DNA from: Schmidtea polychroa
Taxonomy: Eukaryota
NCBI GenBank assembly: GCA_044892525.1
Contig: CM097885.1
Location: forward strand, 114,390,001-114,454,000
Direction: 5' to 3'
Length of the DNA: 64,000 nucleotides
Below the pieces are notes generated by a model. It searched no databases, had not been told where the DNA came from, and saw only the letters and a program-made list of their open reading frames with translations. Made by a program: the position numbers and the translations under genes. This document shows, one piece after another, positions 57,235 through 64,000 of this stretch (its first letter is position 1; every line of letters starts with the position of its first letter).

Positions 57235-57327
<93 letters not shown>

Positions 57328-57811
57328 TGTAGTGAGGACTCCAGCGCACTTTCAAGGTCATGGAATATCAAGATCAAATATAGACCAATCGAATCATTTA
57401 TTTTTTAAATTAACATTTTATTTAATTACTTCTTTTTAATTTTTCTTTTTAATTTTATTAATTAATTATTTTATTATGTTTTATTTAAATTTATTACATT
57501 TAATTAATTTATTAGTTTATTAATATTTTATTTTAATNNNNNNNNNNNNNNNNNNNNNNNNNNNNNNNNNNNNNNNNNNNNNNNNNNNNNNNNNNNNNNN
57601 NNNNNNNNNNNNNNNNNNNNNNNNNNNNNNNNNNNNNNNNNNNNNNNNNNNNNNNNNNNNNNNNNNNNNNNNNNNNNNNNNNNNNNNNNNNNNNNNNNNT
57701 TTATTATGCTTTTATTTTAGTTACTTACTTTAGTTAATTTTTAATTTATTACATTTAATTAATTAATTAGTTTATTAATATTTTATTTTAATTACTAACG
57801 TTATTTAATTA

Positions 57812-57842
<31 letters not shown>

Positions 57843-58166
57843 TTTTTTTTTTAATTTTACATTTACATTATATTCTAACAAGAGCGTAAATTATAACAGT
57901 AATATTTCAATTTGAATAAAATTTTAATTAGAAATTATTTAATTTATTATAAAATAAAACGCTGAGTTAATTTTAGATAAACCGGATATTAATTTTTCGG
58001 AAAAAATAAATAAATAAATAAAATAAACACGAAAATAATATTTCTTACTTGAAACTAATTATCTAAATTAATTGGACAAATAAATAATTAAATGATAAAA
58101 CACATTTTAATTAACTAAGTCAAATAATTCACAATATATATTTTATTATTCACATAAATTTAATTG

Positions 58167-59612
58167 TTAAAGTGCTCGTTTCGATTTGCATTCATTTGTA
58201 GACGGAGCAGTTGCGATATGCATTTGACGAATCTTATAGTGACCGTAGGCATAGCTTTCATTAGAATTGAACCAATATCTTTTATCATCCAAACATTGGA
58301 GAGCTCGTTTTTCTGTAATGAAAGTATACAACTGATGATTAACACTTCCTATTCTCTTTTGTTGGATGCTCACTGTTCCACCATCAGTATACACTTTTTT
58401 ATAAGCTTCATGGGTGATATTAGAATTTGTAAGACTTATTCCTTTGGCTTTTAGAGTGTTTTTATCGCCTTGGAGTGAGTAGCATTTGGGTCGAAGAAAC
58501 ACCCATTCTTTATATTGATTTCCTTTATTCTCATCCTTAACTTTCCCGATTACAGAACAAATTTTATCAGAGAACAATGGATCAGTCACTGGATAATTTG
58601 AAGTATCTAGGAGCCCATCTTCAATCATTTTTGGATATAGTTGTAAGCGTAAATCAACATTTTTACACTCTAAAAAGAAGGAATCTGTGTCACCGGCTAC
58701 GATATTAATTTGACAATTTAATTCTTCTCTATAACTCTGTAGTTCTTTATATTGAAACTGGTACATGCGAAGTTTAGATAAATCAAGTACGGTTTGTCCA
58801 ATATACATTGGTCTATCTAAACACACCATTTCCTTATCAAGTATAACAGCAATGAGATCATCCGCAATCTTGATGCTACGACGAAACATAGGATTACTAC
58901 AATAAGTTATCAATCTTTTGCTTTTGCTGCATAATCTCAAATTTATACGTTTCTTCAAGTTTTCCACAGTTTTACCGTATAAACTGTTGTTCTTTAACTT
59001 ATAATAATCTCGCTGAAACGAATCCATACTAGCTGCTCTCATTTTGGTATTGTAATCAATATATCCTTTGAAAATAGCCACTTGCTTGAATTCTACAGCA
59101 CGATTAACTTTTGTGACCTTTGCGCCGTAACTCATCCACTCTGTCAAAATTCTACCATTAACTACATAGTTTTTCTTAGTCTCATGAGTTAACAACAGCT
59201 TTTCAACTTTACTACCAGGTGGATAACAAAGCTCAGGAGCTATAGGTAAATCATCTAGCTTATCTTGTATACTATCAGGAATGACGATGTCAACCTCTAG
59301 AACATATCCACGATCTCCATCAAACTCATCCCCATTTGCACATCTTTCAACAATACCATTCATTTCAGTCTGATCATTTATCCATCTAAATTCACCAATA
59401 GGAAGTTTTTGCGACAGCGCCCATCCATATAAATTATTAACATCTAGGTATGACATTTGTGTTGATTCATCAGCTTCAACATGATGTTTGTTGATAAATG
59501 TCATTCCACCACGAATACCAGCTTCAAATAAACGGTAAAGCTCTGGATCTTGAATAAGTTCTACCGGTTCAGGTAACTGTTTAATAGCTGATGCCCAACT
59601 TAATCCGGGTAT
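58167..59612 (-). pseudogene. C-terminal half of pPolB, inverted copy of the downstream gene
   Basis: 58986-59612 is the reverse complement of 63374-64000 with one difference seen (HETKK versus HEPKK). Confidence 0.93.
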
Positions 59613-60665: not shown

Positions 60666-60770
60666 CATTTATTTTTCCTACCCCTTCCATGATTTTGATT
60701 GGTCAGAATATATTTATTTTTCCTACCCCTTCCTTGATTTTGATTGGTCAGAATGTAATCATGTGTAATA
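60666..60770 (+). promoter_or_regulatory. Putative polB promoter: two ~45-bp repeats, each with a reverse CCAAT box, followed by TATATAAG (also 49258-49370)
   Basis: TTTATTTTTCCTACCCCTTCC.TGATTTTGATTGGTCAGAAT occurs twice just upstream of the predicted first exon. Confidence 0.5.
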
Positions 60771-60826
60771 TATAAGCAGTAACTTTTCAAATGTTTGTCA
60801 TTTAAACTTTTAATTTAACTTATATA

Positions 60827-63800
60827 AGTGAATAATTTTTTATTCTCTATCTAATATTAATGATTATTTTCTTTTAGTGAACGGATGCAGTTTATATAAA
60901 TTTTGTATTGCCGAAAGTCATGAAGATGTGGAAAACTGTAAATCAGTTACATCATCATATTTCAAGATAAATGACTCTACCTTATCGGGTTACATATGTC
61001 CGGAATGTCTCATTATATCACCAGGTAGGTGGTTAATGTTTGTACGACAACACGGACACCATCTTAGAAGATTCGAAGAAACGAAGAGCAGGATGATCAC
61101 TAAAAGTAATACTCTTTCTACTATTAACAATTATTAATTTTTTATAGTACAATCGAAAATGAATACATCATACGATCCTAAGCAGATTAAAGAATATGTT
61201 ACAAGTTATGTTATTTAAGTTGTTTAATATTAATTATAAATATAGTTAGACAAAACTCTGGCACCACAAAACGAAAGTCAATATTTTACGGAAATGGAGA
61301 TTCTAACATACAATTGTGTCCACGTCGGGAGTCTGACTTAAATGGTTCTCGTGTTGAATTGACAAGCGATGTATCTGCAATTAATTCTCCTGACATTGTT
61401 GTTCCAGATTGTCTCATCAAAGAAATAGAAGATCATATTCAACGAATGGGGACAGTAAAAATCCAATTTGGACTTTGTGCAGAGTTTATCAAAGAGGATG
61501 GTGAAATTAAAAAATGGTGTTTGTCGAATAAAGCAATTACAATGTCATCTTCATTTATTAATGATGGAATTGAAAAATTAAAAGAAAAGTTTGAGAAATA
61601 CACTCAACAAAGTAGTGGGTGGAGAATTCATAAAATATTAGAAGTTACTATAATTTTAACTAAATTATCAGACATAATACATGTATCTGGTAAGTTTATT
61701 TACATTATTATATATAAATCAAGATATTTACTTAGGTTCAAGTTACATTAAAACGCCAAATTACCTGAAAAACTGCCAGGCTTTAGTTAATGTTCAAAAT
61801 AATGATCAATTCTGCTTTTTATATAGCATACTGGCCGTATTACGTTATGATGACATACGTCGGGATAGAGAAAGAACAACAAAATATAACTTAAGTGGTA
61901 ATATATATATATATATATATATATATAATGTCATATATCATTGAATTTTGTTTTTAAGACTTAAAATGGAAATTTGAATGGTTTTTGATGAAGTTGGTTA
62001 ACATTTGCCAATTCGAAGCAATGAATCCAAATCTAGCGATCAATGTTCTCAAATATAATAAAGATCCAATTAAACAAAAAACTAATGATATTTTCAAGAA
62101 TCCGTTCGTTGACTTAGTATATAGAAGTACTTCGACGGGATCTCAAATATATCTCTTATTGATTGAAGAAGGTAATATTTCCATTAATCATTAAAATATT
62201 AACTAAATTTTAGAATTAAATTATCATTTTTTGGCTGTAACCAATCTCGATCGACTGCTGAATTACAGAGATAAAGTAGAAGGAGTCAGAATCCAATCAC
62301 AATGGTGTCATACATGTCTTCATGGGTTTCGAAAACGTCTTGCTTTTGAAAGACATATAGGTCTTTGTAGGAAGAATGTGGAGCGGACGACTCTATACTC
62401 AATGCCAGAGAATAAATATATCGAATTTAAAGACTGGAGTAAAACTATAAAACAGCAATTTGTTGTCTACGCGGACTTTGAATCAATATTACCTCTAGAT
62501 GACAAGCACTTCCAAAAACATGAGCCGATTGCATCTGAATTTGTGCTTCTTCATCAAGGTTGTCCGATTCGAAATGAAACATTTGTTGGGAAAAACTGTA
62601 TCATTCAGTTTATACAAGCATTGGATGATATAGCTACAGACATAGTTTATCCGTGGTATAAAATTAATGGATCGAAGGAAATGATGGAACTCACTTGGGA
62701 ACAGCAGGAAGAATTTACGAATCAAACTCATTGCTACCTTTGTAAAAAGATTATCAATATACCTGTTCCGGATCATGATCATTTTACTGGTCAATATCTC
62801 GGAGCAGCGTGTCAAGATTGTAATTTGGCTAGAAGAATCAATCCGTCTTTACCTGTTGTATTTCACAATCTTCGTGGATATGACATTCATCATATATTAA
62901 AATATGCAATTGGAAAATTCCCCGATTGGAATTTAAATGTTATTCCTCAATCAACAGAAAAGTTTCTCACACTTACAGCGACATCGAAAGGCAGAAGAAT
63001 TAGATTCATTGATTCTTTACAATTTTTAAATAGCAGCTTGGCAAATTTATCAAAAAACTTGCCACGTCTTCCACTGACCTCAGATGTTTTCGAATCACAG
63101 ATGATGACTTGTAAAACCATTTTTCCTTATGATATGGCTACATCAATGGATGCTTTACAGTCAATAACAGAATTACCACTGATTTGGGAGGGAGTTAGTG
63201 AAGAAGATTATATACATGCAAATCGAATCTGGCAACAATACAACTGTGAGACACTGCTAGATTACATGCTAGTATATCTCAAGCTGGATGTTTTTCTGTT
63301 GGCCGATGTTTTTGAAGCTTTCAGAGAAAAAACATTTGACGAAGATGGATTTGAGGCTTTATCGTTTGTTTCCATACCCGGATTAAGTTGGGCATCAGCT
63401 ATTAAACAGTTACCTGAACCGGTAGAACTTATTCAAGATCCAGAGCTTTACCGTTTATTTGAAGCTGGTATTCGTGGTGGAATGACATTTATCAACAAAC
63501 ATCATGTTGAAGCTGATGAATCAACACAAATGTCATACCTAGATGTTAATAATTTATATGGATGGGCGCTGTCGCAAAAACTTCCTATTGGTGAATTTAG
63601 ATGGATAAATGATCAGACTGAAATGAATGGTATTGTTGAAAGATGTGCAAATGGGGATGAGTTTGATGGAGATCGTGGATATGTTCTAGAGGTTGACATC
63701 GTCATTCCTGATAGTATACAAGATAAGCTAGATGATTTACCTATAGCTCCTGAGCTTTGTTATCCACCTGGTAGTAAAGTTGAAAAGCTGTTGTTAACTC

Positions 63801-64000
63801 ATGAGCCTAAGAAAAACTATGTAGTTAATGGTAGAATTTTGACAGAGTGGATGAGTTACGGCGCAAAGGTCACAAAAGTTAATCGTGCTGTAGAATTCAA
63901 GCAAGTGGCTATTTTCAAAGGATATATTGATTACAATACCAAAATGAGAGCAGCTAGTATGGATTCGTTTCAGCGAGATTATTATAAGTTAAAGAACAAC
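60827..64000 (+). CDS. Spliced, apparently intact Polinton-type protein-primed DNA polymerase B (3' end beyond the window)
   Basis: Exons (A at 60827), 60878-61105, 61148-61204, 61246-61689, 61736-61897, 61959-62171 and 62214->64000 join in frame with no stop. Motifs: SGSSYIKTP..VNVQNNDQFCFLYSILA, FVVYADFES (ExoI), DHDHFTG..CQDCN, VFHNLRGYD (ExoII), YLKLDVFLLADVFE (ExoIII), YLDVNNLYG. Confidence 0.9.

Follow-up and report, generated by a model that had tools for sequence, protein, structure and literature searches.

The 64,000-nucleotide window of Schmidtea polychroa DNA analysed here contains, from position 57324, an incomplete, partly deleted member of a dispersed, many-copy family (family A) whose full copies are near-perfect palindromes of 12–14.5 kb, with arms of about 6 kb and, as the sole gene, a whole polB in each arm. 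An earlier note on this DNA had described a polymerase-only element with Polinton ends and long inverted arms, and our analysis supports this description. This Polinton-type element is probably copied by its own polymerase and inserted by a borrowed integrase, an arm being rewritten at or near each move.

The element is 8,351 bp long, from 57324 to window-equivalent 65674, and sits in a (TA)n run (57238–57323), with a shorter (TA)n run after its right end. Its arms measure 2,289 bp (left, 57324–59612), in concordance with the proposed sizes of about 8.3 kb and 2.3 kb. The reported inverted repeat is real: positions 63374–64000, the in-window part of the right arm (+ strand), are the reverse complement of 58986–59612 over 627 nt, with a sole mismatch at 63806. 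The mirror carries on for 1,674 more bases into the 10 kb following the window (L001). There we read the + strand stop of the right-arm polB, predicted near 64819, as a TAA at window-equivalent 64817–64819 (L001 2817–2819), and the mirror of the left end, predicted near 65660, as ...CTCACTACATACTACT at 65659–65674 (L001 3659–3674), with CTCACTACATACT at 65659–65671 and (TA)n following. The left end itself, AGTATGTAGTGAG (57324–57336, + strand), has one AGT unit less than the usual family end AGTAGTATGTAGT. The next DNA was also expected to reveal a target site duplication; ATATAT indeed flanks both sides, but in a (TA)n run it is uninformative taken alone. The left arm comprises an AT-rich repetitive subterminal part (57324–58166, mirrored at L001 2820–3674) and the 3' part of polB (58167–59612, − strand), from motifs A, B and C to the stop at 58167, beyond which the inverted arm does run on to 57324 as claimed. 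The left arm is broken by a run of N, on either side of which arm identity was measured; the two arms differ at 3 of 1,446 coding bases. As the note had stated, no integrase, ATPase, protease or capsid matches are found between the arms.

The right arm carries a whole gene for a protein-primed polB (60827–64000, + strand, and on to the stop beyond the window), with roughly 1,236 codons spread over 7 exons. Six GT-AG introns of 41–61 nt are predicted on the + strand within 60828–62213 (60828–60877, 61106–61147, 61205–61245, 61690–61735, 61898–61958 and 62172–62213), the first of which splits the predicted start codon. Contigs from 4 presumed-RNA runs (3 samples) over 60850–61880 show no spliced joint and some cross introns; they may be DNA, and thus count neither for nor against splicing. 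None of the public runs listed as sharing words of 59300–64000 is an RNA run. The gene matches Pfam DNA_pol_B_2 (PF03175, E 4e-26), its six catalytic motifs are present with the exonuclease and polymerase motifs intact, and phi29 polymerase is the best match in a fold comparison of the modelled last exon (E 2e-16). This exon is open in 22 of 50 arms, and pN/pS between copies is 0.25 (429 pairs, non-independent). Upstream of the gene lie 144-bp tandem repeats of the inner arm (59617–60106, + strand; 87–89% identical to a second palindromic polB family, D) and AT-rich repeats with a predicted promoter (60107–60776, + strand). We infer the promoter role from features that include, both on the + strand, a TATATAAG box at 60769–60776 and a 45-bp duplication, at 60662–60751, that carries two GATTGG (CCAAT-type) boxes.

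The 5' exons of the gene correspond to the N-terminal region of intronless relatives and may encode terminal-protein and vOTU domains, an assignment that follows PMC11161782. These Polinton-type relatives are 54–63% identical to the family-A polB, and Polinton capsid or integrase genes occur on the contigs of two close ones (scans by pattern, mostly short contigs). Long inverted arms were seen at 0 of 80 relatives' loci, with 3 short inverted repeats only, a result that says little because short-read contigs would collapse palindromes.

Two end patterns of family A have 581 exact matches in the genome, and about 45 elements of at least about 290 were read. The ends begin 5'-AGTAGT, and 18 of 35 end pairs in the first part of C1, the contig holding the window at 114390001–114454000, are spaced 11.8–14.5 kb apart. 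In 9 of 9 first-fetched pairs the arms extend over 3.5–6.4 kb and are 95.6–99.7% identical, those of full copies reaching 6.1–6.4 kb, and the 150 best exon-3 hits form 49 head-to-head and 0 tail-to-tail pairs. Exact 6-bp target duplications flank 24 of 30 and 11 of 12 elements, 35 of 42 in all, or 34 of 41 independent cases since one element is a segmental duplicate of another. Targeting of TA repeats by the family was considered and rejected, most insertion sites lying outside TA runs. In one subfamily, copies at four differently flanked sites have no substitution separating them across the stretch compared. At the centre is a mini-element of 0.2–2 kb, bounded by inward-facing ends of a co-resident complete family-B Polinton. 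This centre folds as a stem-loop and is non-palindromic and variable between copies; its motif has 317 exact matches genome-wide. We found the elements to have neither an integrase of their own, such matches falling solely within nested Polintons that have separate ends, nor ATPase, protease, or major or minor capsid genes of their own. In four full copies, the only ATG frames of at least 70 aa are pieces of polB, frames antisense to it and a short one that covers the centre. Our literature searches found no description of a palindromic polB family; Repbase-type libraries or genome-paper supplements may already list it.

Palindromes are a known long-read artefact, and the 99.95–100% identity of an 11.4-kb tandem duplication in the window could reflect an uncollapsed haplotype. 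That the family consists of amplification or assembly fold-back chimeras is nevertheless very improbable: the flanks are unmirrored and form 6-bp direct duplications, the arms differ at a few sites around non-palindromic and variable centres, and nested elements occur in one arm only. Furthermore, half or more of the sampled words from 59300–64000 are present in 13 public runs (among 20 holders, 8 studies), matches which show the family rather than the palindrome and of which one run may be the assembly's own source. For the window element itself, the unique flanks and the family-wide 6-bp target duplications speak against a misassembly.

The window element departs from the full form on its left side, where the polB is without promoter, 5' exons and exonuclease part and where the family centre is itself absent. 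At the deletion junction (59607–59616), polB meets the inner repeats through a six-base match, GGGTAT, common to polB and the central mini-element. The junction has 2 matches in the genome, both at the window locus, in the two units of the tandem duplication, and one-sided junctions elsewhere in the family are likewise single-locus. Because the break is unique to this locus, the half gene is a local deletion and not the design of the family, and the junction looks as expected of a one-off deletion. The suggestion of a copy-back product whose arms contain half the gene is thus not upheld, the family form having a whole gene per arm; of the proposed fold-back origin, what stands is a likely event at the central mini-element for the whole family, and not one at 59612.

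It could still be argued that the copies are repeated copy-back defective genomes, each with its own break, from a complete parent Polinton with a family-A polymerase. The inverted duplication of one end, the absence of internal genes, the unequal arms with differing breaks in many copies and a 4.4-kb end duplication in a complete family-B Polinton are consistent with this idea. We consider it improbable, since none of the roughly 45 elements read is a complete Polinton with such a polymerase, integrase and capsid matches inside A elements come from nested Polintons that have separate ends and target duplications, a size peak at 12–14 kb and a fixed centre recur, and the window break joins centre-like sequence at a single locus.

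Candidate helpers reside in the same genome as complete Polintons (families B, B' and C) with AGTAG ends and 6-bp duplications. Family B has 132 integrase matches, with open frames in most, and carries ATPase, integrase, capsid-like and protease-like genes. The ends of B, B', C and D all begin AGTAG, and every one of the 6 cases read is flanked by an exact 6-bp duplication. A simple deletion of the helper was rejected as the source of family A, whose polymerase shares only 55% identity with the family-B one and groups in a separate clade (quick tree, two partial rows), and whose ends have only 5–10 bases in common with family-B ends. With such a polymerase no parent Polinton is found, and we infer the helper from the end bases. 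One hybrid copy combines a D left arm with an A right arm between exact duplications of CTATAA; the A and D polymerase arms are about 55% alike, and the inner part of the arm is common to both. More tentatively, family A may be a linear replicon of an animal nucleus that cycles through a hairpin, a Polinton satellite with a spliced protein-primed polymerase only, which would alternate between a hairpin monomer of about 6.5 kb and a palindromic dimer of about 13 kb, take integrase (perhaps capsids) from several complete Polintons and swap A and D arms on one inner chassis.

The arms of one copy are each other's closest kin. A private column is shared by both arms in 17 of 24 true pairs, as opposed to 0 of 552 false pairs, and in one copy both arms bear, in mirror image, two rearrangement junctions that occur nowhere else. 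The hybrid D/A copy shows that arm copying is optional, and one full palindrome (L005/L006) has unlike arms. This matching might also arise after insertion, through arm-to-arm gene conversion or cruciform repair, in a helper-dependent family whose palindrome had a single origin and replicates in the way of any linear duplex. Y-chromosome palindromes are kept alike in this manner, by conversion on the chromosome. The shared private changes look neutral: 14 are synonymous and 50 non-synonymous or stop, compared to 15 and 42 for one-arm changes (Fisher p 0.67), a coarser earlier test for synonymous enrichment of shared changes was not significant (p 0.10–0.41), and frameshifts and a stop are among the changes common to both arms. 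The 40 scored of 1,359 candidates included no donor for copy L176/L177, which has 37 shared private columns. Both results fit conversion on the chromosome, as do the equal-scoring arms of many older copies, 3–4% from the query. The target duplications, with 4 mismatches in 37 against roughly 0.6–2.4 expected, do not separate matching at replication from matching on the chromosome. On the other hand, nested Polintons and deletions are confined to one arm (L030–L032, the window, L037), multi-kb rearrangements are mirrored exactly within one copy, and some copies carry as many as 9 one-arm private changes in 1,447 bases, with 37 shared to 1 in others. A duplicated insertion (L060/L075) also retains 12 one-arm differences with no conversion seen, although its duplicates are 99.87% alike and lend little power. 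We regard arm matching on the chromosome as rather unlikely, though the strongest competitor, and moderately favour rewriting at or near each move.

To our knowledge, the copying and re-insertion of Polintons rests on a model, with no intermediate shown. In the cycle we propose, the family would go back to a strand that had been copied from one end, folded over at the short inverted ends bounding the central mini-element and then served as its own template. The spliced polB would supply terminal protein and polymerase, with replication starting at the AGT-AGT ends by slide-back. The displaced strand could then snap back into a hairpin of about 6.5 kb whose open end serves as a fresh origin, and either fold-back copying or mismatch repair in the hairpin form would render the arms alike. 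Integrase from complete Polintons in the same genome may require little beyond 5'-AGTAG, and inserted palindromes would undergo losses within one arm, of which the break at 59612 is an example.

Family A shares with Polintons and Mavericks (polintoviruses, animal adintoviruses) a protein-primed family B polymerase, 5'-AG ends, a 6-bp target duplication (Polintons have 5–8 bp, usually 6 bp) and a size of 13 kb, but it has two head-to-head polB genes with six predicted spliceosomal introns and is without integrase, ATPase, protease and capsid. Copy-back or snap-back defective viral genomes carry an inverted duplicate of one end, have lost internal genes and depend on a helper. Family A resembles them in its inverted end duplication, lost internal genes and likely helper dependence, and differs in being stable as a family, with a selected gene of its own, a fixed centre and no same-polymerase parent found. 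The pPolB linear plasmids are mitochondrial or cytoplasmic, whereas family A, known here from integrated copies, is nuclear, intron-bearing and inserted at hundreds of sites with target duplications, with the polymerase in both arms. Vierula and Bertrand reportedly described in 1992, for the kalilo linear plasmid, a deletion derivative in hairpin and duplex forms. Cytoplasmic linear plasmids are treated in an excerpt of PMC11161782 as Polinton offshoots without the capsid module. Polinton terminal inverted repeats span 100–1,500 bp in the portion of PMC10748475 that describes them, compared to family-A arms of 2,289 bp at the window and up to 6.1–6.4 kb. According to a passage of PMC7999016, short inverted repeats seed large palindromes via fold-back priming; these have, like family A, long arms around a short spacer with short inverted repeats at its borders, but they concern broken chromosomes and minichromosomes rather than a multiplying mobile element. 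Replicase modules of Polisuviricotina and transpovirons, which part of 10.64898/2026.10.13.758929 proposes to move without the capsid module, are likewise bracketed by their own repeats.

A young palindromic family with hundreds of copies offers two internal copies per insertion, comparable to the two LTRs of a retroelement. As these copies date insertions and record the copying step, the fold-back model becomes testable on genomes alone, and the likeness of the two halves may preserve a trace of the way such elements are copied. Here a replicase under selection and with introns appears to move without integrase or capsid, which suggests a route from a virus-like to a plasmid-like element within an animal nucleus. 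The family also supplies this genome with unstable palindromes that amount to a few megabases (a rough figure from about 290 elements of 4–14 kb).

Finally, we observed in the window a tandem duplication of 11.4 kb that the earlier note did not mention: positions 38964–50437 are repeated at 50438–61845 with 99.95–100% identity. With it the left arm recurs, as does its break, here at 48204. The insertion's left part is thereby present in another, truncated copy (45937–50437, where 45937 is the first readable base), which ends within polB exon 4.

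The window element continues beyond the window much as the earlier note had anticipated. The inverted match between 58986-59612 and 63374-64000 was confirmed (627 nt, 1 mismatch), and the next 10 kb of the contig (L001) contain both the predicted + strand stop, at window-equivalent 64817-64819, and the predicted mirror terminus, with the end CTCACTACATACTACT at 65659-65674. The element measures 8,351 bp with 2,289-bp arms, against forecasts of ~8.3 kb and ~2.3 kb, and is embedded in a (TA)n tract of an AT-rich, 781 Mb assembly. The copy-back origin proposed in the same note, on the other hand, was not supported for this copy. 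The 59612 junction has two matches genome-wide, which are the two units of a tandem duplication, and polB is bridged there to inner repeats by GGGTAT, also present in the centre (the short mini-element between the arms of full copies) of the element's family, family A. Because the junction is single-locus and GGGTAT is common to the centre, the window copy is best read as a full palindrome minus most of its left arm and minus its centre. Another one-sided junction tested was likewise single in the genome.

The 11.4-kb tandem duplication (38964-61845) copies the left part of the window element, break included. Its units differ at 3 sites over 6.6 kb and by 66 bp in length, and it may be a recent event or an uncollapsed haplotype. 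It contains pieces resembling a decayed retroelement and DNA transposons (judged by eye) and, in both units (50935-51263 and 39461-39789), a 330-bp near-perfect hairpin with 159-nt arms at 97%, which is probably a small foldback element or MITE.

Family A is genuine and young, a Polinton-type family that is non-autonomous and unusually built. A polB query of the genome returned 1,346 candidates, with 98–100% identity among the 40 scored. Two end-motif variants have 72 and 509 exact matches genome-wide (controls, 0); assuming two ends per element, this amounts to no fewer than about 290 elements. Of the best 150 exon-3 hits, 98 pair up head to head (49 pairs), and no tail-to-tail pair occurs. 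End pairs in the first part of contig C1 span 11.8-14.5 kb in 18 of 35 cases and 3.5-10 kb in the others, two larger ones apart; all nine pairs read first have arms of 3.5-6.4 kb with 95.6–99.7% identity. The full copies read run from the end through AT-rich repeats, an outward polB, a promoter-like region and tandem repeats to the centre, followed by the mirror image.

An exact 6-bp target duplication flanks 24/30 and 11/12 elements in two sets, or 34/41 independent elements, since the stretch L075 duplicates L060. The elements without one comprise four with one mismatch, one within a larger palindrome and two in simple repeats. These exact duplications show that the palindromes are not, in general, fold-back chimeras. 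Individual copies are further rearranged: a 31-kb copy (L178-L180, G000:C1:178.67-178.70 Mb) has the 3' part of polB in its left arm as four or more 3.45-kb tandem units, and L039, compared with L011 (G000:C2:128.75 and 128.79 Mb), includes an inner terminus as well as sequence flanking the site where a different copy, 35 kb away, is inserted. The copies L036 and L038 have nested termini too.

The last polB exon matches PF03175 and has exonuclease and polymerase motifs; the closest fold to its predicted structure (pLDDT 70) is phi29 polymerase (E 2e-16). Six GT-AG introns of 41-61 nt, placed by comparison with intronless relatives, are predicted, with phases that yield a single stop-free frame of about 1,236 codons and a predicted start codon interrupted by intron 1. 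When 40 arms are set against the window copy, the introns show 126 indel events over 10,756 sites (one of the six introns includes a TA run) and the exons 14 over 44,084 sites; GT is retained in 236/238 and AG in 238/238 splice sites. The last exon is open in 22/50 arms, and copies compared with one another give a pN/pS of 0.25 (30 gap-free arms, 429 pairs that are not independent). Given that the terminal protein sits at the N-terminus of Polinton polymerases (PMC11161782), this single gene could be enough for the element to replicate.

In none of the A elements read was an integrase, ATPase, protease or capsid match part of the element itself; where integrase- and capsid-type matches lay inside one, they came from a nested Polinton bounded by its own termini and target duplication. 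Complete Polintons that may supply these functions are present in the genome: family B (15.3 kb, with 132 integrase matches), a form B' with ends AGTAGTATG, identical to those of family A over 9 bases, and family C with ends AGTAGTGAGGA. The family-A polymerase is 55% identical to that of family B and falls in a separate group in a quick tree, which excludes A as a plain deletion of B. Family D is a second polB-only palindrome family, read in a ~17.5 kb element (L021-L023, G000:C3:91847174-91864642) with ends AGTAGATGG and an exact 6-bp duplication, nested within an A element; its polymerase is about 56% identical to A and 66–68% to B. Duplications of 6 bp flank all six B, B', C and D elements read. 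A hybrid (L161/L059, G000:C3:91719434-91732710) with a D left arm and an A right arm has the exact target duplication CTATAA, suggesting that the integrase requires little more than 5'-AGTAG.

In full copies, a 0.2-2 kb spacer lies between inward-facing family-B ends, AGTAG-AGTAGGGTATTGTGTGG, a centre motif with 317 exact matches in the genome. The D centre is similar to that of A, and the two families have inner repeats in common at 87–89%. As large palindromes can be seeded by short inverted repeats through fold-back priming (PMC7999016), priming at the short inverted repeats of the centre would provide a plain origin for family A. In the literature searched, mostly titles and abstract openings, neither palindromic nor polymerase-only Polintons were described; one study proposes mobile replicase modules but finds pPolB paired with integrase (10.64898/2026.10.13.758929).

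The two arms of a copy are closely matched. Over 64 arms and 1,447 aligned bases, arms of one copy differ by a median of 2, compared with 31 for arms of different copies, and a column private to the pair occurs in 17/24 true pairs versus 0/552 false pairs. In one copy, both arms carry the same two rearrangements in mirror image, and neither occurs elsewhere in the genome. We favour, with some reserve, copying of one arm from the other at replication or during a move. Conversion on the chromosome is the less probable account, and both processes may act. Conversion would fit shared private changes that look unselected (synonymous to non-synonymous or stop, 14:50, versus 15:42 for one-arm changes) and include frameshifts in both arms, and a copy with 37 shared private changes for which no donor was found among the 40 scored of 1,359 candidates. 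However, unselected shared changes are also expected from errors in a dead copy replicated in trans, nested elements and deletions remain one-sided within copies, and 9-12 one-arm changes persist in some copies. Relevant background includes the racket-like replication model, slide-back initiation, panhandle repair in adenovirus and Y-palindrome conversion; a hairpin derivative of kalilo has reportedly been described.

One complete Polinton (L027-L029, G000:C4:1195368-1211343) combines family-B integrase, ATPase and capsid genes at 91–99% with a polymerase resembling that of family D and with ends of 1.2 kb that differ, an arrangement that reads as polymerase exchange between Polintons. A complete family-B element (L061/L041/L042, G000:C2:101.92-101.94 Mb) has its ATPase/integrase end duplicated as a 4.4-kb inverted arm, together with an inner terminus copy. 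A elements inserted in Polinton genes, and complete Polintons in A elements, were seen in L011/L012, L170/L171, L030-L032 and L054; this reciprocal nesting may be chance, given the abundance of both. A small family-B gene lies head to head with the ATPase in the stretch L062 (6690-7091, - strand). Finally, a contig from a sequencing run whose label names a second organism aligns to the 704 bases at 60867-61570 of the window with 3 differences, reflecting either recent sharing between species or mislabelling.
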